Assembly (NCBI GenBank): GCA_003647435.1
Contig: QMMV01000001.1
Coordinates: forward strand, 1 to 35,759
Origin: Deltaproteobacteria bacterium
GTDB taxonomy: Bacteria > Desulfobacterota > Desulfobacteria > Desulfobacterales > C00003060
DNA length: 35,759 nucleotides
Reading direction: 5' to 3'
A program made the translations under genes and the position numbers. Each line of letters starts with the position of its first letter. The stretch's first letter is position 1. The notes under the pieces are model-generated. The model was not told the DNA's origin. It made no database searches and worked only from the letters and a program-made list of their open reading frames with translations. This document shows positions 7,725 through 32,003 of the stretch, piece after piece.

Positions 7725-8001
7725 TGAGTCCTATTCTTGTAAGGCGTGCCGAGCCGTAGCTTCGAAACAGGAAAAGTATATATTTTATTTGCCCGACTTC
7801 GCCCTTCGGGCTACGTCGCGGCAGCCTTCTCTTCTCAACAAGTTTCGAAGCGAAGGCTGGTGGAGGGCTCGCCGCCTTCCGGAAATCCAGTCTCCCCAGC
7901 GCCGACACATCAAAAACCCTTTATTTACAATTCCTTGAGAGCTTCCAAGTGCCGTTCTCCGCGTCCCGCTGCGGGAAATGTTTTTCTCCACATTTTCCTT
8001 A

Positions 8002-8120
8002 AAACAGAGAATGGACCTGTCTGCGTGTAACGCACAGGCAGGCGTGGGTTCGACCTGTCCCGCCATAGTTCCGCCGCTGCAGGACGACGGCGGATTCCCG
8101 CTGCCATATCAAACGCGGTG
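8002..8120 (+). repeat. structured repeat, copy A (palindromic element + conserved tail)
   Basis: Shares AAACAGAGAATGGA-CCTGYCTG..CAGGCAGG-CGTGGGTTCGACCTGTCCCGCC and the 3' block GGATTCCC..GCCATATCAAACGCGGTG with copy B at 11117-11231. The palindrome itself is at 8016-8042. Confidence 0.85.
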
Positions 8121-8279
8121 ATATCGTAACCCGAGCATGACATATGGACGATAAAGTAGTAATTATTATAACCCTATCTTGCCTTTTCGTCAAAACATTT
8201 TGGATTTGACTTGACATATGACCGATATAGAGCTAATTTTATTACTACCATGTTGGAAATGCGTCAAATGGGTCAGCCA

Positions 8280-10899: not shown

Positions 10900-11116
10900 T
10901 TGCTGCAGGGCGTAGTAGAAAATTAAGAGCCTGTCCCTTTTTTACTCAAATCCTGCGACGGGCTTTTGGTTCGAAAATTCGGGTGCTTTTTCGCACCACA
11001 GGCCGTGTTTCCAAACTTGCGAAAACGGCCGGCTGGCTCAATCCATTGATATAAAAGGGATTGCCCAACCGGACGAGCTTCGGACTTCATCCTTCGATGC
11101 CAGAGGATCTTGGGGC

Positions 11117-11231
11117 AAACAGAGAATGGACCTGCCTGCGTGCGGTACGCACAGGCAGGCGTGGGTTCGACCTGTCCCGCCGAAGCCTGTCAGGGCGAAG
11201 GAGGATTCCCTCCGCCATATCAAACGCGGTG
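11117..11231 (+). repeat. structured repeat, copy B
   Basis: See copy A. The palindrome is at 11131-11159. It lies just 3' of, and antisense to, the DUF4236-TPR gene. Confidence 0.85.
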
Positions 11232-11261
11232 TTGTAATAATCCAAGTCTCCAGTTCCACGA

Positions 11262-15300: not shown

Positions 15301-17431
15301 GAACCTGCGCGCTCTGTCTTCCCACCGTGGGAACCGTTTCGGCCGCCTGGCTGTCCCCCAAAGCCCTGGCCAGGATCGCCACGGCAGCCTTTGGTTCTTT
15401 ATCGGTGTCCGGGAGCATACCCACAGCATGGAAGCCCAATGTATCCGCAAAGACAAAGCAACTACCATCCTCTAAGCCAGGCAGAAACGCTGGGAACATC
15501 GCCCCATCCAAAGCTGACAGCTCCTCGCGCACATCCTTGGGGGGCATGTCCTGTTCAAAAGCGGCATAAAGCGCTAAATTGTCATATGCCACGTGCCATG
15601 CTACTCGAACCGGATGGCTTGGAAGCACAATCAGGCCAATTGTGCGGCCAGAAAGGGACTGCACTTCAACCGTATTAGCCAAAGCGAGTGACGGGTCACC
15701 TTTCTCCAACACGGCGGCCCAGGCAAGCAAATACTCTTTCACGACGGGATCAAATACCTTGGCATTCTGGTCATATATCTGGCCGACGCCACCGCCGCAG
15801 ACCGCAAACCGCTCAGCCATTCGACGACTTGCGTTTACCGTTCGTTCCCAGAGCGGTGTCCAGGATGTTCCTGACGAGGATTCGGCGGGAACTAGAGGAA
15901 TGAATTCCGCTGCTCCTGCTCGCGAGCCAGAGGCACGCACTTTGACCCGCCAACGCCCGATTTCACCGCGGTGGTGAGTCCATTGTCCCTCCACCTCAGC
16001 AATCAGAGGCGGTCGATACACGCGGAAGCTCTTACCCCGCTGGGGGGTGCGCATCAATACGAATCCCTTAGAATCGACGGGTAGGCTGGCCGTGGTTGAA
16101 GCAAGAGTTGAGCCCATTTCTCGGTCGTCCAGTTCGATCAGCCCTTCGCTAAACGTGCGCACTTTCTTGCCAACGCCCCCTCGTTCCCGTTCAGGTGGTT
16201 GACCGAAGCGAATCAGAAACTCCTCAGACTCCTGAGCCTCGACTGCATCGTTGCCAATCACTGAAACAACCACTTTAGCCGAAATGAGCGCGTCCTCGCT
16301 GAGCTCAGAAAAATCGTCATTGGTAAAGCGACACTTCTCTTCCTTCTTGGCCGAATGGGACACCTCCCGGAAGGCCAATTCCTCTTCCATATCCGTTACG
16401 ATCGCGACACGATATTGAACGGCGTCTTTCTCTAAGTTGTCCGGCCGTGCTTTCCACCGAACTTCAAGCTTCGAATAATGCCCGGTCTGTTCCGCGTCGG
16501 GCTCCAGGACCAGCACGGGCGGTGCGTCGGCGTCACCTTCTTCAATTAGCCCGGACCATTTTGCGACCTTCCCTGTCCTCGTTCTCCACGAAGACAGTTC
16601 GATGGCCTGAATCTCTTGAACGGCACCTTCGATTCGCAAGGCGTTCACCCACAAATGCCTCTTGTCTGCCAGTTCAGTCAAAGCCGGTACAAGCGGCTTG
16701 GTGGCGGCCGATCGCAGAAAACGCTCCAGATTCCTGATCTGCTCTTCGGAGGGGTTCAAGAGCTTCAAGGTTTCAATTCTCTGCGCGGGAGACCCCCCGG
16801 AGGCCGCCGTTCCCAAAAGATGGTCGATGAACATCCTCGATAGATTCAAATCGTCTTCAGTGTGTGAATCCTCGGTCCACTGGACCGGCCAAAGACCGAG
16901 CAAATACAGGTATTCCCCCGGCTGTCTCGCGTCAGCGGCCACGCGAATCAGGAAATCGAACTCAGTCCAAGACGAAACACTAAAGCGACGACCGTATCCA
17001 CGTGCTTTCTTGATTGCCTGCTCGGCATACAGTCGCGTCTCACGAGACAGACGACGCGTTACCTCCCTTCGTGCCAAACGCAATGCTTCCCGAAACAGAG
17101 TCGACTCGTCTACCTCGCGTGCCGCACTATAAATACCGTCCATGCCCGCGCCAGCCAAAGAGGTGTCAACAAGCAAAAGTACTGCCTCTTGCTTGGCCTC
17201 ACGGATTTCGACGGCCTGGTCGGCTGTAATGGTTCGCGCTGTGGAGTCGGCGGCATCGGCCACGCGCCAAACCTGCCAGCCTGAAGGGGCAAAGCCGGCA
17301 TCTGCCGCAAGAGCCTCTACGGCATCGGGTGTCAAGCAACGCACAAACGCCATCGTCCCAGGTTCGGCCTCGCCAAGCACTGTTTCGAAAGCCTGTTTAA
17401 GGATCGTCGCATGTAGTTCAGACCACTGCAT
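12359..17431 (-). CDS. 1690-aa giant protein: large uncharacterised N-region, PD-(D/E)xK-like motif, C-terminal HerA/FtsK-type P-loop ATPase (DptH-like by architecture)
   Basis: One uninterrupted ORF. RPDLIYV..x16..FVEVKYR at about nt 14035-14102; Walker A LIAGLPGMGKTT at about 13324-13360; Walker B AVIFDEAHR at about 12693-12720. Its start overlaps the stop of the upstream gene by 14 nt. Confidence 0.85.
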   Translation of the reverse strand: MQWSELHATILKQAFETVLGEAEPGTMAFVRCLTPDAVEALAADAGFAPSGWQVWRVADAADSTARTITADQAVEIREAKQEAVLLLVDTSLAGAGMDGIYSAAREVDESTLFREALRLARREVTRRLSRETRLYAEQAIKKARGYGRRFSVSSWTEFDFLIRVAADARQPGEYLYLLGLWPVQWTEDSHTEDDLNLSRMFIDHLLGTAASGGSPAQRIETLKLLNPSEEQIRNLERFLRSAATKPLVPALTELADKRHLWVNALRIEGAVQEIQAIELSSWRTRTGKVAKWSGLIEEGDADAPPVLVLEPDAEQTGHYSKLEVRWKARPDNLEKDAVQYRVAIVTDMEEELAFREVSHSAKKEEKCRFTNDDFSELSEDALISAKVVVSVIGNDAVEAQESEEFLIRFGQPPERERGGVGKKVRTFSEGLIELDDREMGSTLASTTASLPVDSKGFVLMRTPQRGKSFRVYRPPLIAEVEGQWTHHRGEIGRWRVKVRASGSRAGAAEFIPLVPAESSSGTSWTPLWERTVNASRRMAERFAVCGGGVGQIYDQNAKVFDPVVKEYLLAWAAVLEKGDPSLALANTVEVQSLSGRTIGLIVLPSHPVRVAWHVAYDNLALYAAFEQDMPPKDVREELSALDGAMFPAFLPGLEDGSCFVFADTLGFHAVGMLPDTDKEPKAAVAILARALGDSQAAETVPTVGRQSAQVLGNEIVKYIECHNTSRLLHIHALRPGDGLTVARSLGCVYEHYHRRGEEDDLEDTTQEQSPAFVLGLYPSEQQRGVAGRFIGEVREKRRSGAGALAPEDHWMLESLSLPSGVNLPRLRWARKNKQNPNTAAHLAVAFDTFESRVVGEPNADSSKPRPYYAFGLLSFFERKYSSAPSPRWRSILLNSTDGEKHPSDRTHTERLLRLQHVVQRCVARSIGTVSEVPVLRTDIPPDKAQSLRELHRLCDWVITLDRNAGIEYFDSPRDNKEIYDAYVIDCVPEREDLGCLQLITSTSNLEEVRNLLDGALDQMALSHSRRNAEFLMEHLKALSGRLAIRLTGHKAPTSELIALALSHANCRHARRSADCWLSLDEGFFIPVDDVRDLLPPVSADDSDNEAKGARPDLIYVTAVSRKGLVFRFVEVKYRRHLRAARGPEVLEGIRQQIESLRERWGNWYSHEDVCSPFRAIRRAKLARVLRFYADKAHRHYLPPERYKEISSEIDRMVEKGGTCAFAGIPRSDRGWVFCPEYMGAHPLEISPAEWDTRIFLFGPALLPDSEFRRDSVTRDNLVQTRPSVAPSAPEEAKAPEAPSVPDFIEAQPSVPSGGTHQEPVPSSKGTEGAIEPRIRLGTDLLTGGKVDWPLTVKGNPHLLIAGLPGMGKTTCLLNLCTQMLDAGIRPIVFSYHQDIDDELQRLVGPIRFIDFRGLGFNPLQVMDRSSQVAYLDVAGALRDIFVAIFPELGDIQGERIRRAVKESFVEKGWDDPNADQNELEEPEFGRFVAILRDTPKSDRGLKSLLARLEELADYGFFALTDSQESLWESDEPVVIRIHKTQNDNLQKAFASLIFYGLYKDMFRRGIQDHITHAVIFDEAHRAAKLTLIPTMAKECRKYGISLVLASQEARDFNVSLFSAIANYLVLRLTEADAKALVRNVASSDQERMLIDRIKQMERFKALYFSEARKKPARVALLRPSVHAEDVSYDS

Positions 17432-19250
17432 TGTCGTCCTCCGTCGCCGGTTCGAAACGAGGGCGCAAGCACTTCATGGCCTCTGCGTCGTTAACGCCAA
17501 CAAGCAGCCCAAGGTCTCGCAAGCGCCGTTCAAGAACAGCTCGGTTCAATCGCAGCAGTTCGTTTGAAATCGCCATTCCCACCGGAGCCGTATCGACACA
17601 GAAACCATAGCGATCATGGAGTATCTCCAAAAAACTTTTGAGTGCCAGCGGCCGAGATCTAAGCCTTTTGCCTTTTTGCAGCACGTGTCGGTGAACCAAA
17701 TAGTCTAAAACCGAATCCGTAAAAACAAGTGAACGGATTTCGCGCGTCCTTCTCGTTCCGGCGCTCACGACTGCCCGTGTGACGCGTCTCTTGACGGCCA
17801 GTCCATTCGGACGTCCAATCAGTAATGCCGAGTCGATCATTGTGATCAGTCTCGATTGCGTATTCTTGCGTCCCTGTAGTGCCGTCAAAGCCTCTGCAAG
17901 ACGCCAGACCGGATTCGGCTGAACGTTTTCATCTCGCAGTAGTTGTGCGTGCTCGGGGTAATCCTCTTCCAATCTTTCGGCCAGTTCAGCGGCTTTACGA
18001 TCCAAATCATAGAGAATCGGTTCGGCTTCCTCGCGACGTTTGTGGAGCAAATCACCCAGCAGGTTCAACCACTCGGTCGCATACGGCCGGGTCTGAACAG
18101 GGAGTTTTTTGACCTTGGGGTCGTAGTGTGCCCAGCGATCGAGCAGGCGAAGGGCCATCAGGACAACCGGGAAGCGTTCGATACGACGCATGAAATCATC
18201 CATCGACTGCTCGGCAAGCTTTCTGAGGTCCCGATCCACACCATTGGAACAATCCACGAAGAGGGAGGCTTGGCTCTGGTTGCGTCTGTTTCGTATCTCG
18301 CCAGTATCTGCCCATTCGAATAGAAGTTCGATCACGCTAGTCAGAATCGTCGTCAACCCGACCGCCATGCACGATTCCAATAGTTCCACGAAACTGTGGC
18401 GGGGAATTAGTGTTGAGTAGGCGCGGACGAAATTCCGGATATCCTCGGAGAAATACCTGGCCGCTCGCTCGGCAATCGGCCGTTGATTCGAAATCTTGTC
18501 CCCCTCTTTGCCCCGCAATTTGTCCGGAGCCGCCCCCAGCTGTTGCGCCAGGCGAATCATGAGCAACTGGTCCAGGCCGACGGGCGTCTTTTCGGCAAAG
18601 TGATCGGACGTACGGCTACTTATCTCGCCCCGTCGCGTGATACCCTGATGGAAGGCACGCAGAAGAACATTTGCTTCGAAATCCCGGCCGACTGCGAACC
18701 ACGTGCGATCCCCTTCGCGATTTTGCTGTACGTACTCGCCATTCTGGTTGGCTAACATTGCGACGATCATTTCTGGTACATAGCGCAGGTTTGTGACGGC
18801 GTCGGGAAGATCTACCCAACTGGCCATATAATGGGCCGGGGCGACGCGCTGGACTTGCTCCGTTCTGCCAAGGGAGCGTTTGGCATTTTCGAGGCAGAAG
18901 CAGAGCAAGAGGTCACCGAGAATGGCTCGTTCGGTTTCACCGTCAAAGCCCTCGAACGCCTCCGCTTCGGCCAGTTTACCTGCTACACGTTCGATCGTTG
19001 CCGCCCGCCGGCGTTCTCGGGGCGTTCCTGCGGTTCCGCCAAATACATCCAGGAACCGCCCTTTGCCCCGCCGTTGGGCGAAACGAAACATGTAGAATAC
19101 AGCCGGCAACACAGCGGAGAGGTCAAAATCCTGGACCGACACAGGTAATGCCCTTTCGTAATTGCCTGTCCATATTTCACGCGTCATGCCACGCCCAAAC
19201 ACATCATCGACGATAGCGCGGGCGGTGGTGGCTCTCTGGGCGGGCTTCAT
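17418..19250 (-). CDS. 610-aa protein with no motif I recognise (occupies the DptG position)
   Basis: Long ORF with an ATGA start/stop overlap with the upstream gene and a 14-nt overlap with the downstream gene. A GGAGG SD lies inside the end of the upstream gene. Confidence 0.8.
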   Translation of the reverse strand: MKPAQRATTARAIVDDVFGRGMTREIWTGNYERALPVSVQDFDLSAVLPAVFYMFRFAQRRGKGRFLDVFGGTAGTPRERRRAATIERVAGKLAEAEAFEGFDGETERAILGDLLLCFCLENAKRSLGRTEQVQRVAPAHYMASWVDLPDAVTNLRYVPEMIVAMLANQNGEYVQQNREGDRTWFAVGRDFEANVLLRAFHQGITRRGEISSRTSDHFAEKTPVGLDQLLMIRLAQQLGAAPDKLRGKEGDKISNQRPIAERAARYFSEDIRNFVRAYSTLIPRHSFVELLESCMAVGLTTILTSVIELLFEWADTGEIRNRRNQSQASLFVDCSNGVDRDLRKLAEQSMDDFMRRIERFPVVLMALRLLDRWAHYDPKVKKLPVQTRPYATEWLNLLGDLLHKRREEAEPILYDLDRKAAELAERLEEDYPEHAQLLRDENVQPNPVWRLAEALTALQGRKNTQSRLITMIDSALLIGRPNGLAVKRRVTRAVVSAGTRRTREIRSLVFTDSVLDYLVHRHVLQKGKRLRSRPLALKSFLEILHDRYGFCVDTAPVGMAISNELLRLNRAVLERRLRDLGLLVGVNDAEAMKCLRPRFEPATEDDNAVV

Positions 19251-22200
19251 GGCTGACCTCCTAATGGAAGCGGCTTGAGGACAATCTGCTGCCGAGGACC
19301 TTCGGACCGCTCATCGATTTCGGCAAAGACCCTATAAATAGTCTCGTCTTGCATGGGATTCCATACGAGCAATTCGCGCTCGTCCTCACGAACAAGCCGC
19401 TGGACGAAAATCGAAAGGTTGGCGAACGTATCATCTGTCGATACGTCTCCTAACTGGTATCCGTCACTTAGCTCCAGAAGGAGGTGGAACAACTCAGCTC
19501 CCAATCGCAGGCGTTCTTCTCTACCGTCACGATAGCGATAGATCAGAAATGCGTGTCGGTGTAGTCGATCAATACCCTCCACTGCGGGTGGCAGGTCGGG
19601 TTCGATCCGAAAGGCGTCGAGCGGTTTTTCAACCCAGAATGCTGTCTCAGTGGGTGTTCGAGGCGTGATACGCAAAGGAACGACCCCTTCCCGATCCAGT
19701 GCCTGTGGGGGAAGGTCTTCAAGGCGCGAGATACCGGCGCAGAGACGATCACGCAAAGTCCGCAATTCGTCGGCCTCCTGTACAAGGGCCAGATTGCGGA
19801 AAAGCTGAAGATCCCTCCCGCGGGCAAGATCTAGCACACGAGGGTCGCCGACAATCTGTTCAATGTGCTCCTTGGTCCATTCAAAGTAGGCTCGGCGGCG
19901 CGCTGATTCCAGCGAAAGTCGCTCGTATCGCGGCGCTGTCTTCGTACTCTCTGCAAATGGTCTGCTTAATAGATAGCGGTCGATTTGCGGATGGGCCTCA
20001 AGAGCAGGATCGAATCGTGCCAGCTCTCGGAGGGCTTCTCCTTGGCGTCCAGGGGAGTATGACACAAACGCCCGATCCCAATATGGCAGCGGGGTAACAT
20101 CAGAGCCATCATGGTAATCATCGCAGAAATGGACACCGAATAGAATATAGACCAACGCAGCCCGCAGTTCGCGAATCGTAATGTGCGTTTCCCCACGCAA
20201 GTGCACAGCCTGCAACGCTTCGAATAACCGACGACGGGCACGCTGACGGGTACTCGGATCAACGGGCTCCGGCACGCCCTCCGGCCCGAAAACACGGGTA
20301 GCCCGAAATACTTCACATCGCTCCTTCGCGGAACATGACTGACATGGCCTCCAAATCGCCGACGTTTTGTCACCTCCATAGAGTTGATCCAGCAGCCGCT
20401 CGAGGAAGTCAGTCTGGATGACTTTCCGGTCAGACGTAACACCTCCTACCAGCGATCTTCCGTTGAGATCAATGAACCGGATGTGAGATTCCCGCTTGGT
20501 CTCTTCGGCTTGAAGAAGCTCATATAGTTCTTCAGTGAGTGCAGTTGTATTCCCGCCATTGTGCAGCTCTATTCCTTCGATCCATTCCAGCAGCCGGCCG
20601 TCATTGATGGCCAACAGATGCACGATGTCCTCGGTGGGAAGACCTTCCTGGAAGGGGGCGAGGAATTTGTCGAGGATCTCGTCAGCCGAACGTCCACGCC
20701 AGGCCGCTGAGCCATCCAGATTCATGCGGACAATCAAGCCGTCATCCATCCTGCCCTCGAGAAGGCGCTCCGACGACGGGTGCTCGCCAAACCCGAGTCG
20801 TGTTGCGAGGTGTTGAAGCAGTGCTGTCTTGCCATCACCAGCGTTCCCGCACAGGATCACCAACCGAACGCGCCGTTCTCGAATGTCATGTTCCAATGTC
20901 TCTTCAAGCCGGGTCTCAACATAAGTCTGCGCAGCAAACGGCGTGTCTAAACCTCGCGTCTCGCGGTTACCCCACCGGGAACCTGGGTAGGATTGAAGCA
21001 GTGAGCGCAGCCATTCTATCTTGTGCTCTCGCAGATCCTGTAATCTGGAAGGTTCCGTTTCCGTTGGTTTCTGCGGCAATTCCTCTTCCGGCTGCTCCTC
21101 CGCTGGCTGCGGCGTCGTTAGAGCGGCCAATGCTTCGGTTGCAGAAGAAAAACGCTGACTCGGTTCTGGGTAGGTTGCCTTGTCTATAAAAGCAGCAAGG
21201 ATCGGATATTCATTACGATTGATGCCTTCCCAGTTTACACCTCTTTCTTTGGCCAGCTCTCCGCCGTACCGGAAGGGCTCTCTGTCGAAGACGACGTGGA
21301 AGAAACTAGCTGCCAAAGCATAAATGTCATCCGAAGCGGAAGCTAGTCGACCCTCACCATAGGAAGGTGAGCAATATAGAACCGTGCCTGGGCCACGGAT
21401 GGGCTCGCCAATCTTGTTAACGAAATCATAATCGGTCAGGACAAGGTCGCTTCCGGAAACGATCATATTGCGCGGGCTGACGTCCCCATGTACGAGGCCA
21501 TTGCGATGAAGCACGTCCAGCGCTTCACACATGAGGTGCAACCACCGAGCGGCCAAGCCTTCACTCGACGTTTCCTGTTGGTCTTCGGCTAACAATGGAA
21601 ACACGCCGCTGAATTCACCCAGTGGGGTGCCATCGAGCCATGTCATGAGGGCGACAAACTCATTTACTCGCCATTCTCGCGCTACCTCGTAGATTGCCGA
21701 AAGGCCTGCGTGGCGACCAAGATGGGAGCGAGCCAAGCCATACGACTTCAGTACACGCTGGCCTACCTCCGCTTCGTGCGCTACTTTGGCAACGTACGTT
21801 CCAAGATCCTCCTTTGTCGATGACTCAATCTCAACAACCTTGAACGCTGTCCCCACGCCTCCCGAACCAAGACGTGAGACAATGCGGTAATCACGACCGT
21901 GGAAGCGTACCAGTTGGTCTTCCGTCCAAAACCTTGCCGGCGGTGCCGCAGGCGGCGGTACGGATTCGCCGAGGAGCTGGGAGAAAGACACCTCCAGATC
22001 CTTCAGCGTACAGCGCTCTTGTGGTTCCTCTGCAAGGCCCTTCGCGAGCGCTTCCAATGCGGCCACACTATCTTCATCGTGACGTTCCTGAAACAAAACG
22101 TTCAAAGAAGCGCACAGCGAATACACATCCGACCGTTGGTCGGCAGCGCCTAAGCCCTGTGTTCGAACCTCAGGAGCTATCGTCAATTTTTGTTCAAGCG

Positions 22201-23272
22201 GAATCTGCTTAGAAGCGACCGTCACCTGCGAAGGAATCTTCATGCGGTCAAAGCCGGTGAGGATCGGTGAGTTGTCGTGTTTCACGAGGACCGTGTGCGG
22301 AGTAAGATTGCGGTGGACGAACGGTTGATCCTCCGTCCCTTCGCCATGAAGTTCAGATATAGTACGAATAACGTTCCGCGCGAACGCCAATCGGCTCATC
22401 GTATCCCATGTATCATCTAACACACGTTCTGCGATACATGGTGCGGCAGGGTCGACCACGGTGAAAAAGAACATCTCGCCCGCGTATCCCGGGGCGCTCT
22501 GGTACGAATCAAGAATACGCGGTGCCCACGTATGCAGTTGAAGACGCTGTAGCGCCTCAAACTCACGTCTGGCTTTGGTCTCGGCATTCTTGTCATCGCT
22601 TGTAGACAGGTCGTAGAGGTGCAGAATCACGCGGTCCTGTCTGGCAGAGTGAACCCCTTTGTATATCCGGTGGAACCGTTCTTCCCTCGGCGTTTGCAGC
22701 TCCAGGTTGACGTAGCCTCCAAACCGCCTGAGAGACCCATCTATGGCCACTTTGCTCTTTGGAGCCAACAGCCGGCTTAATGAGTCTATTTGTAAAGCAG
22801 ATAATATCGTAGGTTTCTCAAGTCCGACTGCCTTCTTCCATCCATTCAACGTATGGAAGGAAACACCTCGTACAACTGTTTCAGCGAGTCGCTGGGCCTT
22901 GGATGACTCACGAGTCAGCAAGATCACGCCATCCACATACGGAAGCACCGGAACCTTTCTACGAAGCGTTGTTCCGAGCTTACGCGCCTTATTCGTGATT
23001 TTGTCGACCTCTTGCTCCACTTCGTCCCTGTGTTTGTCCACCCATTGCGAATCCCAGTGCTTGACCTCTATAACGCGTATTCCAGATGGGCTAATCGCAA
23101 CAATGTCAATCTCGTCGGACTGTAGCTGATGGTTTACAGAGAAGGCCAGATTCGTTAAAAGAATCCATTTCCCATCGCCGGGCGTAGATTGCAGACGGTT
23201 CTTTAAGAATTCAAACGCCTTTAGCTCGCTCTCGTTTGCTGCGGGGCCGCAGGGAATGATGGTTACTTGCAT
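19247..23272 (-). CDS. 1341-aa fusion: NERD nuclease-like domain + degenerate kinase + intact Ser/Thr-type kinase + P-loop NTPase/Cys-cluster module
   Basis: NERD: DEIDIVAISPSGIRVIEVKHW. Pseudokinase: HRNLTPHT, GFD, and no Gly-loop or Lys. Kinase: LGSGGVGTAF, YVAKV, HGDVSPRN, DYD. Walker A: ILCGNAGDGKTALL. Also LLAINDG and CQSCSAKERC. AAGGAG SD 8 nt upstream of the ATG. Confidence 0.88.
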   Translation of the reverse strand: MQVTIIPCGPAANESELKAFEFLKNRLQSTPGDGKWILLTNLAFSVNHQLQSDEIDIVAISPSGIRVIEVKHWDSQWVDKHRDEVEQEVDKITNKARKLGTTLRRKVPVLPYVDGVILLTRESSKAQRLAETVVRGVSFHTLNGWKKAVGLEKPTILSALQIDSLSRLLAPKSKVAIDGSLRRFGGYVNLELQTPREERFHRIYKGVHSARQDRVILHLYDLSTSDDKNAETKARREFEALQRLQLHTWAPRILDSYQSAPGYAGEMFFFTVVDPAAPCIAERVLDDTWDTMSRLAFARNVIRTISELHGEGTEDQPFVHRNLTPHTVLVKHDNSPILTGFDRMKIPSQVTVASKQIPLEQKLTIAPEVRTQGLGAADQRSDVYSLCASLNVLFQERHDEDSVAALEALAKGLAEEPQERCTLKDLEVSFSQLLGESVPPPAAPPARFWTEDQLVRFHGRDYRIVSRLGSGGVGTAFKVVEIESSTKEDLGTYVAKVAHEAEVGQRVLKSYGLARSHLGRHAGLSAIYEVAREWRVNEFVALMTWLDGTPLGEFSGVFPLLAEDQQETSSEGLAARWLHLMCEALDVLHRNGLVHGDVSPRNMIVSGSDLVLTDYDFVNKIGEPIRGPGTVLYCSPSYGEGRLASASDDIYALAASFFHVVFDREPFRYGGELAKERGVNWEGINRNEYPILAAFIDKATYPEPSQRFSSATEALAALTTPQPAEEQPEEELPQKPTETEPSRLQDLREHKIEWLRSLLQSYPGSRWGNRETRGLDTPFAAQTYVETRLEETLEHDIRERRVRLVILCGNAGDGKTALLQHLATRLGFGEHPSSERLLEGRMDDGLIVRMNLDGSAAWRGRSADEILDKFLAPFQEGLPTEDIVHLLAINDGRLLEWIEGIELHNGGNTTALTEELYELLQAEETKRESHIRFIDLNGRSLVGGVTSDRKVIQTDFLERLLDQLYGGDKTSAIWRPCQSCSAKERCEVFRATRVFGPEGVPEPVDPSTRQRARRRLFEALQAVHLRGETHITIRELRAALVYILFGVHFCDDYHDGSDVTPLPYWDRAFVSYSPGRQGEALRELARFDPALEAHPQIDRYLLSRPFAESTKTAPRYERLSLESARRRAYFEWTKEHIEQIVGDPRVLDLARGRDLQLFRNLALVQEADELRTLRDRLCAGISRLEDLPPQALDREGVVPLRITPRTPTETAFWVEKPLDAFRIEPDLPPAVEGIDRLHRHAFLIYRYRDGREERLRLGAELFHLLLELSDGYQLGDVSTDDTFANLSIFVQRLVREDERELLVWNPMQDETIYRVFAEIDERSEGPRQQIVLKPLPLGGQP

Positions 23273-23284
23273 CTCGCTATCTCC

Positions 23285-23755
23285 TTAAGGTTTCGCAGGT
23301 TCTTCCTGCGATTCGCCTGCTTGCTGCAACACGTGGATGGCGGTATCACGCATGTCCATTTTCACCATCCTACCACGTGGCCTTTCTTTAGAAGATAAAC
23401 CCATACGCAAGCGGCTTTCCCTGGCGTAAGCCGGATGTTTCTCATAAACGGTTTTGAGCAAGGTGTTGTGGTCGAGGACCGCGGCGACGTCGAACGCGGT
23501 GGAGATGCCCCGGCGAATTTCGAGGTTCGGCGCGATCACCAGAACACGGCCTTGGGCAATCTCGAAGGGCAGCAGCGCCATGAGGCCCGTCTTGCCGCAG
23601 CCCACCGGAATTTGAAGGATGGCGTGCTCGGAACTGTTCCGGAAATGCTGGCGCGTGCGGAACCATCCCTCCACCTGGGGATCGCGCAAGTCCGGGTTGC
23701 CCTGGATGAAAGCCCGGGTGTCGTTGAAGAACCTTGCTATTTCCTCATTTGTCAT
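23285..23755 (-). pseudogene. N-terminal stub of an SF2 (DEAD/DEAH or Res-type) helicase
   Basis: Motif I QIPVGCGKTG and Ia VLVIAPNLEIRRGI are present. There is no motif II or later, and the tail looks non-homologous. Its ATG overlaps the hsdR stop (ATGA). Confidence 0.6.
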
Positions 23756-26700
23756 ACCTTTTCTGCCCAATCTCGGCAAACGACTTCCGCCTGTTCCAGA
23801 ACAAGCTCCGTAGCGCGGGCCTGCTTATCAGGTGGATAGCCATACCGGCGAAGAATGCGTTTGACCATCACACGCATCTGTGCACGGACGTTCTCCCTGA
23901 CGGTCCAGTCGATGGTGACGTTATTCCGCACCGCACGAAGGAGTTCTTGTGCGATGATTCGAAGGGTTTCGTCCCCAAGAACCTTCACAGCGCTGTCGTT
24001 GACCTCCAGAGCATCGTAGAAGGCAATTTCATCTTCTGTAAGGCCAAGTTCTTCTCCGCGGGCGTCGGCCTCCCGTAGGTCTTTAGCGAGCGCGATCAAC
24101 TCTTCGATCACCTGAGCGGTTTCTATGGCCCGGTTCTGGTATCGCCGAATCGAGTTCTCGAGCATCTCGGAGAACGATCTCGCTTGAACGATATTCTTTC
24201 TTCCACGCGTCTTGATTTCGCCTTCCAGCAGCTTACGAAGCATCTCAACGGCTAGGTTCCGCTGTGGCAAACCTCGGATTTCTGCCAGGAACTCATCCGA
24301 CAGGATGGAGATATCCGGCCTCTTGAGTCCAGCCGCAGCGAAGATGTCGATGACTTCATCCGATGCCACTGCTTTCGATACGATCTGACGGATGGCGTGA
24401 TCGATTTCTTCCGGGCTACGCCGATCCACCCCGGCACTCTTGGTCAACACTGACTTCACGGCTTGGAAAAAGGCCACGTCGTCGCGAATTTCCAGGGCTT
24501 TCTCATGCGGTACAGCCAAAGCGAAAGCCTTAGAAAGCTCCGACACCGCCCTGGCCAGCCGATTCTTGCCGTCTTCCTGTTTAAGAACATGCTCCTGAGC
24601 TGCTGGTAGAATCACCAGGCGTTCTTGGGGGTCTCCATCAATCCAGGCAGACCATTCGAAACCGTGGAAGATGCCGCAGCAGACCTCGTATTTCTCCAGC
24701 ATCACGGCCACAGCTTCTTCCTGATCAACAGCGGTTCTGCCCTTGCCCCCACTCTCGGTGTAGGTCGCGAGCGCGGATTTCAACTCGTGAGCAAGGCCCA
24801 GATAGTCGACGACCAGACCGCCCGGTTTATCTTTGAAGACCCGGTTCACCCGGGCGATGGCCTGCATCAGGCCATGACCGCGCATGGGCTTGTCCATATA
24901 CATCGTATGCAGGCAGGGAACATCGAAACCGGTCAACCACATGTCCCTGACGATGACCATCTTGAACGGGTCCTCAGCGACCTTGAATCGCTTGGCAAGT
25001 TCTTCTCGTCTGGCCTTGTTGCGGATGTGCTGTTGCCACTCCACAGGGTCTGAAGCAGACCCCGTCATCACTACTTTCAGGCTTCCTTTGTCGTCGTCGC
25101 TATGGTGCCAGTCCGGCCGGAGCCGGGCGATGGCCTCGTAGAGCTCAACACAGATTCGGCGGCTCATGCAGACCACCATGGCCTTACCGTCCATCGCTTC
25201 AAGCCGGCGCTCAAAGTGATCGACTATGTCCTGGGCGATCAGCCGGATACGCTTCTCTGCACCGACGAGGGCCTCAAGTTGCGCCCACTTGGTTTTGAGC
25301 TTTTCTTTGTGCTCAACCTCTTCGCCTTCGGTGGCTTCTTCGAACTCCTCGTCGAGCTTTGGCCGTTCGGCCTCATCGAGTTCCAGCTTGGCGAGGCGAC
25401 TTTCATAATAGATCGGGACCGTGGCTCCATCCTTCACTGCCCGCTCGATGTCGTAGACGCTGACGTAATCTCCAAAAACGGCGCGGGTGTTCTTGTCCGT
25501 CAGCTCGATGGGCGTGCCGGTAAAACCAATGAAGGATGCGTTGGGCAGCGCCTCGCGCATGTGCCGCGCGAAGCCGTCGATAAAGTCGTATTGGCTGCGG
25601 TGGGCTTCGTCGGCGATCACCACGATATTGCGCCGATCCGACAAAAGGGGATGCTGGTCTTCTCCCTCGGTGGGAAAAAACTTGTGGACCGTCGTGAATA
25701 CCACGCCCCCTGATCCCGTGTGCAACAATTCCCGCAGATGCGCCCGGCTTTGTGCCTGCTCGGGTTGTTGCCGGAGAAGTTCATGGCAGCGCGCGAACGT
25801 CCCGAATAACTGGTCGTCCAGGTCGTTGCGGTCAGTGATGATAACCAGCGTCGGGTTCTCCATCGCCGGGTGGAGCACGACACGTCCGGCATAGAACGCC
25901 ATGGTCAGGCTTTTCCCTGATCCCTGAGTGTGCCACACCACACCAACTCGCTTGTCCCCGCCGGCTCCAGCCGCCCGAACGGTCGAATCCAGCGCCAGGT
26001 TCACCGCGTGGTACTGGTGATACCCGGCCATCTTCTTGACCAGCACACCGCCGCCTGTGTCCTCGAACACGATGAAATGCCGGACCAAGTCCAGGAATCG
26101 CCGTTTCTCGAACACACCCTCCAGTACTACCTGGAGCTGCGGCAGTTTGTCGTCCGCCAGTTCCTCACCCTCGATTGTCCGCCAGGGCATGAACCATTCC
26201 CGGTCGGACGTCAGCGTCCCGATCCGGGCCTGTACGCCGTCGGATATCACCAGCGCTTCGTTAAACGCGAAGAGCCGTGGTATCTGCTCTTTGTAGGTCT
26301 GAAACTGGTTGAACGCCGACCAGATGGTCGCGCTCTCGGTGGCCGCATTTTTCAGCTCGATCACCGCCAACGGAAGGCCGTTGACGAACAGCACTACGTC
26401 AGGACGACGCTCATGCCGATCCTCGACAACGGTGAACTGATTGACCGCCAGAAACTCGTTGTTCTCCGGCATGTCGTAGTCCAGCACGCGAACGAGGTCG
26501 CCGCCGATGGAGCCGCCTGCCTGCCGCGCCCGTCCAGCAGCGATCTCACGTTTCAGCCATGTTCGACCATATCCGGTCTTGAGCCATTTCTCGCGTTCCA
26601 CCGCCTTCTCGCGCGATTCGTGCTCTTCGTAGTATTCTATACAGACAGGTCTGTGTTTCCGAGTGTGTTCCGCAGCCGTCCCCGCTAAATGTTCACGCCA

Positions 26701-27114
26701 ACGCCGCTCCAGATATTCTGTTTGTCCTATGTAGATGCTGTCATCATCACACCGTATCGCATAAACGAAAAAACAGCCGGGACGCGGCGCAGGCAGGTCA
26801 GCCCGCTGGTACTCGACGGGAACGCCATCGACCAGGTACTTGTGTATGAGGTGGTTATTCGCCACGAGCGTTGGCATGTCCGGTCGAGTCAGCTTGCGGA
26901 ACGCCTCTTCCAGGGCGTCGGCCGGCACCTGGGGATTGAGCCGCTGGAGCGCCTGACGCAAGCGCGATTCCAGAATCACTTGTTCATAATCTTCACGCTC
27001 AGCCGCCGGTTCTCCCGGGGCGATCTCCGGCCCGGACAGGATGGTGTAATCTAGCGCCTCCAGCCAGGCGAGGGCGGCTTGTTCAACCGTGGTTTCGGCG
27101 AACGATCCACTCAT
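23752..27114 (-). CDS. hsdR: Type I restriction enzyme R subunit, carrying an in-frame GIY-YIG insertion
   Basis: HsdR N-terminus. Nuclease motif [19 protein letters not shown]. Helicase motifs [19 protein letters not shown] and FTGTP. Conserved C-terminal domain. Confidence 0.95.
26516..26797 (-). mobile_element. 282-bp palindrome-bounded GIY-YIG cassette inserted in frame in hsdR
   Basis: Bounded by CCTGCCTG (26516-26523) and CAGGCAGG (26790-26797), with further imperfect inverted repeat inside those ends. Encodes 94 codons including FFVYAI..IYIGQT..RRWREH..EREKWLK. Confidence 0.8.
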
Positions 27115-28106: not shown

Positions 28107-29446
28107 CAGATACACCTCCCGACGATCCGCTCCGCATCCAGCAAACGCAACTCGCCGGAAATGAGCCTGGGAAGAAGAGTGTCGCGGATAGCTGCGAGGG
28201 TACGGGATTGTTCCATCGCAACTCTGATCCGGTGAAAAATGGGCGCCACAATCTTGCTGAACTCATGAAACAACAAAGAGTCGATGTCGGGCGTTGGGAG
28301 AGTATATTTGCCAAGGCTGTCTGCTGGTACGCGTTGCCGCCCGCTCGTACCAGTCATTTGTTGGATGGCGAAAGTCCGGAATCTTTCCGTCCGGGCTAGC
28401 AGGTACGCGAAGACCGGAGGGATCGCCCCGGTTGGCCTAAGCACGATATACTCCGTTGACCCCCAGCCAACTTCCCCTTCTCCAAGGAAGTCGACGAATG
28501 CCGTTTTGCCATTTTCGAGACAGGGGGTGATCCGGGCAACCAACGTATCGCCGTTGATGAACTTCATTCCTGATCCCACCTCCCGCAATACCCATGATTC
28601 GGGAGCTGGCCCCTTCGTCGGCATATCAGCCATGCTGAGGTACGGTGCTAGTGAGCCTTTCGACAATGACCGAGGAGGGTTGATCTGAAAGACTTCGGGT
28701 AACGAACGTACCTCCCACCCCTTCGGAATCTCCCCCAGCTCCGAGTCCACGAAGGCATCGGGGAACAGGTCGGCGATGTGGGGTGCGAGGCCGCCTGCCT
28801 GTGCCGTGCCCGGCACGGCAGACAGGGGGGGCTGTTGGCCTTCTGCCTTGGCGCGGACGGGGTCGAAGTCGACGAACCAGCTCTTGAAGATCGCCCGGGC
28901 CATCGCCTCCAGCGTCTCGTTCATCCGCCGGTTCAACTCGATCTTGTCATCCAGCGCTCCCAGGATGCAAGCAATGGCGCGTTGCTCGGGAAGTGGCGGA
29001 AGATCAACTTCGAGGTGAGTCAAAGCGTTCGTTGGAACACGTTGACGACCGGAGCTTCCGGTCATCTGTGAGATGGCATACTGCCGCACTCCATCCCATC
29101 GCGTGAGATAGTAAGCAAAGTTGTTGTCCGTCACGTCGGGCTTGCCGCGAATGACGATGAACTCCGTCGATCCATGGCCCATTGGCTGGTTGTCGGGTGC
29201 GGCAAAGCGAGCGATCTTGCCGTTTTCCAAGCACGGCGTGATTCGCGCCATTAACGTGTCACCGTTCATGAAGCGTGAGCCGCCGCCCTTGAACTCTCGC
29301 ATCTCGCTGGGTCCAACGCTCCGAGATGCCGGGTCCACTGCCTTCATATCGACGAAAGGATAGACCTCGCCGCGTTCAAGCAGAACGCGTGGGTTGATCT
29401 GGACTGCTTCGTCAAGCGGCATGGTTGTCCACTCGTCATTCGCCAT
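28106..29446 (-). CDS. hsdS: Type I restriction specificity subunit (two TRDs)
   Basis: Duplicated TRD architecture, with [11 protein letters not shown] and [13 protein letters not shown] each present twice. Central and C-terminal conserved helices, ending [12 protein letters not shown]. Confidence 0.93.
28794..28826 (-). repeat. 33-bp palindromic element, in frame in the hsdS central conserved region
   Basis: CCTGCCTGTGCCGTGCCCGGCACGGCAGACAGG. Encodes [11 protein letters not shown]. Identical to the copy at 31658-31690. Confidence 0.9.
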
Positions 29447-31061
29447 AGCCGATGTCCTCCAGATTGGCCCAGATGATCTGGTCGAGCTTGGCTGACTGCT
29501 CCGTCTGCTCGCGCAGGGCGACGGTCAGGCGGGCCATCTTCTCTTCGAACGGCTCGCCGTCATCTTCCACCTCGGCCGCGCCGACATAGCGGCCGGGGGT
29601 AAGGATGTGGTGGTGTTTACGGATGTCCTCGATAGTCGCGGCCTTACAAAAGCCTGGAATGTCTTCGTACTGCTTGTCACAATCCTTGTCGCCACGCCAG
29701 GCGTGGTAGGTGTCGGCGACCCGGCGGATGTCGTCTTCGGTGAGTTCGCGATGAACCCGGTCGATCATGGTGCCGAGCTTCCGCGCGTCGATGAACAGCG
29801 TCTCGCCGCGCCGGTCGCGGAAACGCCTGCCTGCCGCGCCAGCGGCGCAGGCAGGGCCGTTCTTCTTGTCCCTGGCAATGAACCAGAGGCAGACGGGAAT
29901 CTGCGTCGAATAGAAGAGCTGGCCGGGAAGCGCCACCATGCAGTCCACCAGGTCGGCCTCGATGATGTTCTTGCGGATTTCTCCCTCGCCGGACTGGTTG
30001 GAGGACATCGAGCCGTTGGCCAGAACGAAGCCGGCCAGACCGGTCGGGGCCAGATGGTGGATGAAGTGCTGTACCCAGGCGAAGTTGGCGTTGGATGTTG
30101 GCGGTGTCCCGTACTTCCAGCGCTTATCGTCCTTGAGCAGGTCGCCGCGCCAATCGCTGTCGTTGAAGGGCGGATTGGCGAGGACATAATCGGCTTTGAG
30201 GTCGGGATGCAGGTCGTGATGGAAGCTGTCGGCGTGTTCCTTCCCGAGGTTGTTCTCTATCTGCCGGATGGCGAGGTTCATCTTCGCCAGCCGCCAGGTG
30301 GTATGGTTGGACTCCTGGCCAAAGATGCTGACGTGGGCCTTTGCTTTGCCCCCGTTGCCTGTCTGCGTGCCACGCACAGGCAGGCCGTTGCCTGTCGCAT
30401 GCGCCCTGACGAACTCAACCGATTGGACGAACATGCCGCCGGAACCGCAGCACGGATCGTACACCCGGCCCTTGTAGGGCGCGAGCATTTCAACCAGCAG
30501 GCGGACGACGCAACGAGGCGTGTAGAACTGGCCGCCTTTCTTGCCCTCGGCGCTGGCGAACTGCGACAGGAAGTATTCATACACCCGGCCGAGGATGTCC
30601 TTGGTGCGGTTTTCCTTGTCGCCCAGTCCGATGTTGCCGACAAGGTCGATGAGCTGGCCGAGACGCTGCTTGTCGAGGCGCGGGTGCGCGTAGTCCTTGG
30701 GCAGTACACCCTTGAGCGAAGGGTTGTCGCGCTCGATGGCCAGCATGGCGTCGTCGACGACCTTGCCGATGGTGGGTTGCTTCGCGTTGGCCTTGAGGTG
30801 CGACCAGCGGGCTTGCTTGGGCACCCAGAAGATATTGACGGCCCGGTACTCGTCGGGGTCCTCCGGATCTGCTCCCTGGGCCTGCTCGGCTACGAGCTTG
30901 GCGTGCTGCTCCTCGAAGGCGTCGGAGATGTATTTGAGGAAAATCAGACCGAGTACGACGTGCTTGTACTCGGCGGCGTCCATGTTGGAGCGGAGCGCGT
31001 CGGCGGCCTGCCACAATTCCCGTTCGAAACCGAGGTTGGCTCCGTTGTTGTTCTTGGCCAT
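29436..31061 (-). CDS. hsdM: Type I N6-adenine DNA methyltransferase subunit
   Basis: HsdM N-terminal domain ([32 protein letters not shown]), SAM motif DPCCGSGGM, and catalytic NPPF. The start MAKNNNG at 31061 has a GGAGAGGAG SD; the track start at 31115 overlaps the HTH gene. Confidence 0.95.
29826..29855 (+). repeat. 30-bp palindromic element, in frame in hsdM
   Basis: CCTGCCTGCCGCGCCAGCGGCGCAGGCAGG. Read on the minus strand it encodes [10 protein letters not shown]. Confidence 0.85.
30358..30384 (+). repeat. 27-bp palindromic element, in frame in hsdM
   Basis: CCTGTCTGCGTGCCACGCACAGGCAGG. It differs from the 8016-8042 copy only in two loop bases. Read on the minus strand it encodes LPVRGTQT. 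Confidence 0.9.
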
Positions 31062-31401: not shown

Positions 31402-31449
31402 GCGGGATTTCTGTCCGGAAATTCTCTGGGCTGGAAATGACTTATGATT

Positions 31450-31947
31450 TCAGCGCCAGGTCCCGCCGAAAAGCTCCCTGAAACTCCTTATGGAGCGATC
31501 CCCGACCACATAGAGCCAGGCTGGAAGAACGGCTCCACCGGCCCATACCGGGACCAGGACACGGCGGTAAAGGTAGAAACCGCCCGGGTGGAAGCCCTCG
31601 AGGCGGTCGATGGCGGGAAGGCGGGACTCGGGGTCGCCGAAGGTGAGAAGCTCCCCGCCTGCCTGTGCCGTGCCCGGCACGGCAGACAGGTACACAGGGC
31701 CACAGTCGCCCGCTGTGGCGCTTTCCGGGGCTGGCTCGAGGATGGATGCCAGGTCCTCGGCAAAGCGCGCCTGTGCCTGCCTGTGCGTGTCCGCACGCAG
31801 ACAGGTGGCCACGTCGGCGAGCGGGTCGGCGGTGCCGTGGGCCAGGATGTCCGTCTCGGGCACCTCCAGGACGGGGATGCCGGATGGCCGCCCTATCCGT
31901 CGCTTGCGGAGGCATTGCGAGTTCGCCGGTTCTGGCGACACCCACAA
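31450..31947 (-). CDS. gamma-glutamylcyclotransferase (AIG2/GGCT)-like protein with two in-frame palindrome insertions; start uncertain
   Basis: The C-terminal half, ELLTFGDPESRLPAIDRLEGF..YRRVLVPV..PAWLYVV, fits the GGCT family pattern. The N-terminus is atypical. An overlapping plus-strand ORF was judged spurious. Confidence 0.55.
   Translation of the reverse strand: MWVSPEPANSQCLRKRRIGRPSGIPVLEVPETDILAHGTADPLADVATCLRADTHRQAQARFAEDLASILEPAPESATAGDCGPVYLSAVPGTAQAGGELLTFGDPESRLPAIDRLEGFHPGGFYLYRRVLVPVWAGGAVLPAWLYVVGDRSIRSFRELFGGTWR
31658..31690 (-). repeat. 33-bp palindromic element, in frame in the GGCT-like ORF
   Basis: Identical to the 28794-28826 copy. Encodes [11 protein letters not shown] in the same element frame. 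Confidence 0.9.
31776..31805 (-). repeat. 30-bp palindromic element, in frame in the GGCT-like ORF
   Basis: CCTGCCTGTGCGTGTCCGCACGCAGACAGG. Encodes CLRADTHRQ in a different element frame from the 33-bp copies. Confidence 0.85.
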
Positions 31948-32003
31948 CGACCTCCACTCTGCGGCCAGTCTGTTGTCTGGTGACTGACGTTCAGGCCCGG
32001 GCC

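Follow-up and report, generated by a model that had tools for sequence, protein, structure and literature searches.

How did a complete GIY-YIG nuclease domain come to lie, in frame and between inverted repeats, inside a gene for a type I restriction subunit that has a nuclease motif of its own? The gene, hsdR (positions 23752–27114, minus strand; a full-length open reading frame, or ORF, of 1120 amino acids, aa), stands on contig QMMV01000001.1 of a Deltaproteobacteria bacterium (Desulfobacterota; assembly GCA_003647435.1), and the whole stretch of 35,759 nt that was analysed is called the window throughout. The insert spans 26516–26797 on the minus strand and comprises 282 bp, or 94 codons, as defined by comparison with an empty allele and by Pfam. 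We conclude that it is one copy of a widespread and apparently undescribed family of selfish elements, rather than a one-off fusion. With a probability of roughly 0.55, we read it as a selfish mobile element whose sole cargo is a bare Slx1/UPF0213-type nuclease, whose action on hairpins or cruciforms would drive its spread and whose insertion would be completed by host repair.

The host is a type I HsdR. Pfam and NCBIfam identify an HSDR_N nuclease domain, a superfamily 2 (SF2) motor and the C-terminal domain (616 bits for the NCBIfam hsdR model), and hsdM and hsdS adjoin the gene in an operon of the order hsdM-hsdS-DUF3644-hsdR within a defence island. The insert breaks HSDR_N into two stretches, the second of which covers profile positions 95–198, and between them Pfam places a GIY-YIG domain (PF01541) at HsdR aa 115–183 with an E value of 1.9e-16, above the cut-off. 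The closest empty allele comes from locus L001, an Acetothermia metagenome-assembled genome (MAG), whose HsdR is 93% identical to that of the window. Its DNA reads ...GCTGAC/GGCTCC... (here and below the slash marks the junction), and the filled allele in the window reads ...GCTGA, then the insert from CCTGCCTGCGCC to CGGCAGGCAGG, then CGGCTCC.... The insertion relative to L001 is thus exactly 282 bp, as an earlier note on this DNA had claimed from the sequence alone, and the alignment with orthologues that it called for gives precise boundaries, uncertain by a single C. At the hsdR junction no target duplication longer than this 1-nt ambiguity was found between the window and L001. At the protein level, the closest HsdR relatives, again 93% identical, read VEYQRAD/GSIGGDL without the insert; the host therefore resumes at GSIGGDL rather than at SIGGDL, where the note had placed it, and HsdR itself contributes one of the two Gly residues. 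An AlphaFold2 run on the N-terminal 383 aa of HsdR (11-sequence alignment), meant to show whether the insert occupies a surface loop, gave an unusable model with a mean pLDDT (predicted local distance difference test score) of 39; going by the sequence, the point after VEYQRAD may be a beta-hairpin turn. The inserted copy starts at HsdR aa 107 and ends at aa 200, and HsdR's own PD...(E)xK motif (RRPDVV ... IELK; 26350–26409, minus strand, read from the sequence) is intact at D239 and E253-K255, about 38 residues downstream, against the 40 or so estimated before.

The same cassette occurs well beyond this gene. A scan of one genome per species recovered 22 near-full-length DNA copies, and a metagenome scan added 76. 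The 22 come from over 10 phyla (genomes or MAGs), and their sources include Acidobacteriota, Nitrospira, Planctomycetota, Chloroflexota, Verrucomicrobia, Desulfobacterota, Gammaproteobacteria, Saccharibacteria and other Patescibacteria. Altogether there are more than 100 full-length copies from many bacterial phyla that share the terminal 8-mers, and both filled and empty alleles were recovered; the search for further repeat-bounded units and empty sites that the note had proposed was therefore productive, and the ends are not peculiar to this locus. At E<=1e-10, an exhaustive profile-free search of 1.84 billion protein cluster representatives returned 292 proteins, and of the 150 top-ranked ones nearly all are hosts of 100–1100 aa with the complete 94 aa in their interior. 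Pfam assigned the hosts among 105 representatives to HsdS (66), HsdR (3) and HsdM (2), with the remainder including MsrB, trigger factor, a DUF1156 methylase, TatD, QueC, TrmD, ArgRS, MGMT, SET and NOV_C proteins. Every copy starts with (C)CTGCCTGCGCCGCG, translated LPAPRP, and ends with CGCGGCAGGCAGG, translated (R)ARQAG, and recognisable host sequence in the same frame lies on both sides of every complete copy. A search with the 94-aa insert found no free-standing close relatives, all close matches being embedded in other proteins. Distant relatives, at 32–43% identity, are ordinary UPF0213-type ORFs of about 100 aa, at which CCTGCCTG repeats were not found except at L030 and L036.

Some proteins carry two copies. 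P0128, a 655-aa HsdS, has two different GIY-YIG elements, and in P0151 both conserved HsdS regions are occupied. Other copies have decayed: in L026 (3001–3282) the interior is frameshifted and the repeats are kept, and in L009 (3001–3279) a small deletion at the 3′ junction puts hsdM out of frame. Such decay is as expected of a selfish element after fixation. The L009 hsdM and the P0024 HsdR also hold another in-frame insert family, translated ...PSPSGRG(V/G)GGEG..., and translated repeats of several kinds appear to accumulate in restriction-modification genes.

These distributions bear on the possibility that a second nuclease was recruited by fusion for the benefit of the host and then inherited vertically. 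An insert that is in frame, intact and adjacent to HsdR's nuclease motif is what such a fusion would leave, and it would fit the dominance of restriction-modification proteins among the hosts. However, of the 120 HsdR N-terminal homologues that match best, just 4 have PF01541, and the 116 without it include the closest, 93%-identical ones, which is the opposite of what an ancient fusion carried by all orthologues would give. Add to this the same cassette in MsrB, TrmD, trigger factor, QueC, ArgRS and SET proteins, the nucleotide-level selection on the inverted repeats and the identical elements within diverged flanks that are described below, and adaptive fusion is largely refuted; we give it very little credence.

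The cargo is the catalytic core of a GIY-YIG nuclease (HsdR aa 115–183; 26566–26772, minus strand). All four motifs listed in the earlier note (FFVYAI, IYIGQT, RRWREH and EREKWLK) lie in the insert, and Pfam, solved structures and a structural model agree with it that the domain is intact and of UPF0213 type, with Y12, Y22, R32, H36 and E69 of the element in place. The nearest solved structures by sequence are the UPF0213 proteins EF2693 (1YWL, E 1.3e-8) and BH0048 (1ZG2, E 1.5e-5). An AlphaFold2 model of the element domain, with a pLDDT of 90.3, has the beta-beta-alpha-alpha-beta-alpha fold of the superfamily together with the conserved Arg, His and Glu of its motifs; Foldseek ranks UPF0213 proteins first, then Slx1 (ranks 3–6; Slx1-Slx4) and then the UvrC N-terminal domain. 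The NCBIfam model for group I intron endonucleases scored only 22 bits against a cut-off of 56. Sequence matches and model together place the domain nearer to the UPF0213/Slx1 branch than to homing enzymes of the I-TevI type. Pfam finds GIY-YIG alone inside the insert and no DNA-binding domain in the cassette. Slx1 is described as a structure-specific nuclease that cuts branched DNA near the branch point (PMC6902002).

Two free-standing relatives deserve mention here. L030 (2830–3300; Flavobacterium cheonanense) has a free-standing UPF0213 GIY-YIG gene after a tRNA-Leu, and L036 (2900–3330; Patescibacteria) has a free-standing UPF0213 gene; several hundred nt beyond this region, on its downstream side, ARAGORN calls a tRNA-Ser. 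In both, a 20-nt hairpin, CCTGCCTGCCGGCAGGCAGG, lies within a tRNA-like fragment adjoining the UPF0213 gene. This arrangement suggests an older link of this nuclease branch with CCTGCCTG hairpins and a tRNA-associated lifestyle.

Evidence for movement comes from close pairs among the recovered copies, compared with their flanks over 400 nt. The elements of L103 and L109 are identical at 282/282 positions. Their hsdM flanks agree at 64–77% of positions over the 400 nt and at about 85% within 90 nt of the element; counted from the repeat ends, the first differences come at −9 and +4. Four further pairs follow the same pattern, with element identities of 99.6% (L108/L120; left and right flanks 87% and 73%), 97.9% (L122/L127; 86% and 81%), 95% (L006/L109; 80% and 67%) and 93% (L086/L087; 70% and 76%, where even the +1 base differs). 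Identical elements in diverged flanks imply that the mobile unit is the repeat-bounded 282 bp with a few flanking nt at most. These comparisons show an element that moves as a discrete unit and is younger than its flanks, with presence/absence polymorphism at fixed sites. The homing-type mobility suggested in the earlier note is thereby upheld at the level of populations, in that identical elements occupy the same site of diverged alleles.

The sites themselves share a weak consensus. Across eleven independent sites, G (11/11) and A (9/11) precede the junction and C (9/11), G, R and C follow it, and of the residues that precede the insert in 77 proteins, 46 are Asp and 8 are Gly. The window holds two further target sites, both empty. 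One lies in hsdR itself at GIFH/GFEW (24652–24675, minus strand) and is filled in L146, L155 and L158, whose HsdRs carry the element between FH and GF(D/N)(W/Y). The other lies in hsdM at VEDD/GEPF (29547–29570, minus strand; DNA GACGAC/GGCGAACC); it is filled in other loci and is the site most often filled among the DNA-level copies recovered. In L104 (3–1277), a single ORF has the HsdM C-terminus (GRYASAEAQEDD) to the left of the element and the HsdS central region (GLPKPLADLFP...) to its right, and HsdS is joined exactly where the hsdS of the window has a 33-bp palindrome. Recombination of one element site with another appears to have produced this deletion or fusion.

How the element is expressed follows from its phase. 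It brings neither a promoter nor a start or stop codon, its length is 1 + 3n + 2 nt, and it sits between codon bases 2 and 3, usually GA/C (Asp). With this phase and without a stop, the host ribosome should read through, making the nuclease an internal domain of the host protein. Comparison of the copies shows this in-frame read-through architecture consistently: in a set of 82 distinct 282-nt copies, used for all selection counts, 81 have no stop codon. The earlier note's proposal that the insert is translated within its host, with no intron or intein, is borne out by the frame, by the absence of any intron match and by the lack of intein junction residues.

Selection was apparent on two levels. 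Among the same 82 copies, the catalytic residues are retained at Y12 in 82, Y22 in 80, R32 in 80, H36 in 81 and E69 in 82, and synonymous-site dating found four-fold degenerate sites between distant copies to be saturated in both the element and its flanks. Third codon positions are 94–100% fixed at codons 1–4 and 89–93, as against 28–70% elsewhere, two Trp codons excepted. These patterns show selection acting on the nuclease and, separately, on the terminal repeats as nucleic acid.

The frozen positions coincide with the terminal inverted repeats. The 5′ arm (CCTGCCTGCGCCGCGTCCCG; 26778–26797, minus strand) also encodes the linker LPAPRP, and the 3′ arm (CTGGACGGGCGCGGCAGGCAGG; 26516–26537, minus strand) the linker GRARQAG; each is supported by the repeat, by the predicted fold and by its frozen synonymous sites, in the 5′ arm third positions. 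The repeats have a double role, as DNA that pairs and as a Pro-rich and a Gly/Ala-rich linker, respectively. In the hsdR copy, the 14-nt arms CCTGCCTGCCGCGC and GCGGCGCAGGCAGG are complementary at 12/14 positions (86%), and they pair in both the minimum-free-energy and the centroid fold of single-stranded DNA. The outer 8 nt are perfectly complementary, and the inner part is imperfect, with a 2×2 mismatch and a 2-nt bulge, again as first noted. Terminal inverted repeats of the kind that delimit transposons and miniature inverted-repeat transposable elements (MITEs) are therefore present. Element ends in the window take the form CCTGCCTG...CAGGCAGG, and CCTGCCTG occurs 13 times in the window versus 1.26 expected, a count reached in 0/100 shuffles.

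The arms also covary. The third bases of Arg-5 (CGN) and Gly-88 (GGN) combine as A-T in 21, G-C in 19, C-G in 13 and T-A in 9 distinct end pairs, with 5 G-T pairs and 11 mismatches, so that 62/78 (79%) are Watson-Crick pairs versus about 27% expected from base frequencies. All four Watson-Crick types are present within the hsdM-site clade alone. For the first 22 copies the covariation score was 0.122 versus 0.053 ± 0.009 after shuffling, 0/500 shuffles reached it, and slid controls were far lower. Since the protein constrains neither position, there must be a stage at which the arms pair or are homogenised one against the other.

Pairing ends could in principle work on the transcript. A terminal mRNA stem might cause the 282 nt to be excised, or bypassed by the ribosome, and some host protein would then be made without the insert; the pairing of the element ends fits this, as do the 5′-arm variants, which are C-to-T changes that preserve G-U pairs on the sense strand. 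Removal of the RNA, however, would make the strict frame and the stop-free copies unnecessary, and as read from the sequence the junctions have no matching pair of take-off and landing codons. Rfam returned nothing at the gathering threshold for the whole window, and a search at E<=1 around the insert gave a noise match only. We consider removal at the RNA level highly improbable.

The same ends bound much shorter sequences. The earlier note had recorded 27–33-bp palindromes with the element's terminal 8-mers elsewhere in the island, and the window contains seven. Two of them, of 27 bp (8016–8042) and 29 bp (11131–11159), lie inside the first and second copies of a repeat unit of about 130 nt. 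A 33-bp palindrome in hsdS (28794–28826, minus strand) is an exact 11-codon insertion relative to the L001 hsdS, to which its flanking protein sequence is identical, and a second copy of the same 33 bp (31658–31690) stands in a 179-aa ORF together with a 30-bp palindrome (31776–31805). The remaining two, of 30 bp (29826–29855, minus strand) and 27 bp (30358–30384, minus strand; translated LPVRGTQTG), are exact insertions in hsdM relative to the L006 hsdM. The hsdM 30-mer consists of the element's 14-nt 5′ end, a T and the element's 15-nt 3′ end, and the palindromes in hsdM and hsdS show the same one-C junction ambiguity as the GIY-YIG element. Further afield, palindromes are nested inside GIY-YIG elements in L015, P0124 and P0125, and in P0213, a 675-aa HsdS, a 23-aa internally deleted element (LPAPQPGKWLEGEIKAGRTRQAG) directly precedes a full copy. 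Palindromes and elements co-occur: of the 24 loci whose match is nearly full-length (L003–L026), 7 hold 13 palindromes between them, there are 34 in 22 of the 76 element-carrying metagenome loci, and just 2 across 56 loci that hold only distant free-standing relatives. We infer, with good support from this association, that the 20–45-bp palindromes with the same ends are non-autonomous derivatives of the element. Shared ends and junctions, co-occurrence and the deleted copy in P0213 likewise support the idea, already in the note, that the 282-bp unit is the cargo-carrying and possibly autonomous form.

Most of the palindromes respect the reading frame, the length being a multiple of 3 in 72 of 84 that are located in long ORFs. 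Their ends are tandem tetranucleotides, (CCTG)2 and (CAGG)2, so that stems can slip by 4 nt, and several predicted folds use a shifted register (for example at 30358–30384 in the window). Many have a fixed T-G/C-A mismatch at position 5 that marks one strand. An RNA-level reading of this asymmetry was rejected: relative to the sense strand its orientation is unbiased, at 29 against 28, which argues for a role at the DNA level rather than in mRNA.

Could the palindrome itself be the mobile unit, moved by an unrelated enzyme or host process, with the GIY-YIG ORF as passive cargo that landed in its loop? Short palindromes are far commoner than GIY-YIG copies, identical 33-mers occur in two genes of the window, and CCTGYCTG...CAGRCAGG palindromes, mostly of 27 or 30 nt and often several to a contig, are present on 29 IMG/VR viral-contig stretches (L164–L192) with no GIY-YIG element nearby. 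Passive cargo should decay, however, and here the catalytic residues are kept in 80–82 of 82 copies in unrelated hosts even though synonymous sites are saturated. No candidate RAYT (transposase associated with repetitive extragenic palindromic, REP, sequences), IS200 or DDE transposase was present among the scanned ORFs of the window, and palindromes are strongly enriched where the element occurs. We therefore regard the cargo explanation as improbable.

The mechanism that we favour instead has the element's own nuclease driving the spread of the element. Most likely it would be a structure-specific endonuclease whose substrate is the hairpin or cruciform that the ends of elements and palindromes form, much as Slx1, the closest characterised relative, acts at branch points. 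Host repair or ligation would then finish insertion at the weakly specific G-A/C-G-R target, and selection would retain only in-frame insertions in tolerant loops and linkers; weak target preference and this selection together could explain why the same few sites recur. Short palindromes would be moved in trans as non-autonomous derivatives. The cost to the host would be low, its protein remaining intact around the extra domain.

Several points weigh against this reading. The nuclease activity of the element domain is a prediction from sequence and model, and since GIY-YIG enzymes hydrolyse without ligating, the insertion pathway would need host functions. The covariation hangs mainly on one variable pair, the remaining stem being invariant, and the Asp/Gly bias at junctions might stem from selection that favours turns in the protein and not from a target in the DNA. 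The link between palindromes and nuclease is one of co-occurrence rather than demonstrated dependence; in the viral stretches fetched there was no LPAPRP-type GIY-YIG element, nor did a protein search of viral contigs find one. Finally, elements cluster by insertion site and not by host taxon, and the sample contains no near-identical pair at two different sites, a combination that fits site-specific homing better than free transposition.

This last point leads to a classical homing endonuclease gene that lacks an intron or intein, where the embedded GIY-YIG domain would cut empty alleles in a sequence-directed way, at the insertion site or close to it, and the break would be repaired by recombination and the element copied in. 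Targeting may then be provided by a DNA-binding host protein, and the repeats may be incidental, either relics of a palindrome at the first target or kept as linkers. Beyond the site-specific clades, such homing would account for the recurrence of the same sites across diverged HsdR, HsdM and HsdS families, for identical elements in diverged alleles of the same gene, for the degenerate copies L026 and L009, which a homing cycle is expected to produce, and for the predominance of DNA-binding restriction-modification subunits among the hosts. Yet a DNA-binding domain is missing from the cassette, and DNA targeting could not be provided by hosts like MsrB, trigger factor, QueC or TrmD. Co-conversion of flanks extends over <=3–8 nt, which is unusually short for repair-templated homing. 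Homing requires neither frozen synonymous sites in the repeats nor covarying arms, and nuclease-free short palindromes have spread with the same junction. We consider this explanation unlikely on balance, and conservatively class the element as a selfish GIY-YIG nuclease element.

Comparison with known systems sharpens what is unusual about it. GIY-YIG homing endonucleases have their own ORF and translation signals and a separate DNA-binding domain, and are tolerated through placement in introns or between genes. Like I-TevI, the Seg proteins and I-BmoI, the element places a GIY-YIG core in a selfish unit that recurs at conserved positions of conserved genes; unlike them, it is a catalytic core only, bounded by inverted repeats and translated within the host protein. 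It resembles inteins with homing domains in being an in-frame selfish insert, translated with its host, at conserved sites. The intein signatures are absent, however: the first residue is Leu, the end reads ...RQAG, the +1 residue varies (E, G, Y, D, K and others) and there is no Hint domain. Given the Leu and the variable +1 residue, protein splicing would not be expected, and the insert should remain part of its host. Nor is the element a group I or group II intron, the reading frame being continuous through all copies. A DDE transposon with a target duplication of fixed length is likewise a poor match, with an ambiguity of <=1 nt (C) at the four junctions whose empty state is known and GIY-YIG as the sole domain.

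Among hairpin-ended elements, the REP/RAYT and IS200/IS605 systems share hairpin repeats, a target duplication that is minimal or absent, the marking of one strand by imperfections of the hairpin, and a protein-coding partner accompanied by many short non-coding derivatives. They differ in enzyme and in expression: theirs is an HUH/Y1 transposase, with its own gene, that cuts and rejoins through a covalent intermediate, whereas the element has a hydrolytic GIY-YIG domain and no gene of its own, and no HUH/Y1 transposase was found in the element or in the scanned ORFs of the window. The best analogue of the short palindromes, going by description, is the Rickettsia palindromic elements, which Ogata and colleagues reportedly characterised in 2000 as selfish palindromes in frame within protein genes, in Rickettsia only. 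Those encode no enzyme, whereas here a nuclease-bearing form exists and many phyla are involved. Slx1 and the UPF0213 proteins EF2693 and BH0048 are the closest relatives of the domain, but they are stand-alone cellular proteins, and Slx1 needs Slx4. We found no described counterpart of a repeat-bounded, domain-only cassette that is expressed solely through the frame of its host and has short derivatives. Tentatively, and at somewhat less than even odds, we suggest a new class of prokaryotic mobile DNA, a hairpin-ended element whose structure-specific, Slx1-like GIY-YIG "transposase" would be expressed only as a domain of the protein it has invaded, with the widespread 20–45-bp in-frame CCTGCCTG...CAGGCAGG palindromes, present in many phyla and on viral contigs, as its non-autonomous derivatives.

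One case of this kind has been described before. In MCA0838, an HsdR of Methylococcus capsulatus, a GIY-YIG domain lies at about aa 800 and is missing from an 80%-identical homologue; Dunin-Horkawicz et al. (2006; PMC1564403) regarded it as "very recently inserted" and posed the question of whether domains of this type are molecular parasites. That instance is presented as unique (PMC1564403), and differs in position from the copy in the window, which is at aa 107, the C-terminal site of the window's hsdR being empty. The paper mentions no terminal repeats, family, other hosts, short palindromes or evidence of movement (PMC1564403), and full-text searches of open-access papers and bioRxiv found no description of the element family beyond this single 2006 case.

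Selfish nuclease genes that lie within other genes are known to hide in introns or inteins or to force ribosomal bypass. The element would represent a fourth way, as a tolerated extra in-frame domain whose recognition ends serve as peptide linkers. If this is correct, many odd "GIY-YIG fusion" architectures in databases may be explained as parasitism, not function, a nuclease candidate is identified for a widespread family of in-frame palindromes, and insertions of domains and linkers into bacterial proteins, like rearrangements of restriction-modification loci, would have in the element a general source that had stayed hidden. Selfish DNA would thus reshape type I restriction-modification genes, as in the HsdM-HsdS fusion across two element sites. 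At 282 bp the element also offers a testable system for how a hydrolytic nuclease can drive precise insertion, and the 94-aa domain with its hairpin substrate could serve as a compact structure-directed nuclease.

Other features of the window were recorded alongside. The direct repeat of about 130 nt mentioned above occupies 8001–8135 and 11116–11246, each copy with its 27- or 29-nt palindrome followed by a T-arm-like CGTGGGTTCGACC and then a shared ...GGATTCCC..GCCATATCAAACGCGGTG; the two copies bracket AbiEi-like and AAA/DUF4143 genes. A tRNA reading of the palindrome flanks at 8016 and 11131 was tried and rejected, ARAGORN calling none with or without the palindromes. The 179-aa ORF with two palindromes (31444–31983, plus strand) has no Pfam match and overlaps ORFs on both strands, which leaves its coding strand uncertain. 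Downstream of hsdR (12359–23779, minus strand) lies a run of large defence-type genes, in which a 1690-aa protein without a recorded Pfam match is accompanied by a ResIII-like ORF of 156–164 aa, a 610-aa MAD7-family protein and a 1341-aa protein that combines NERD and protein-kinase domains.

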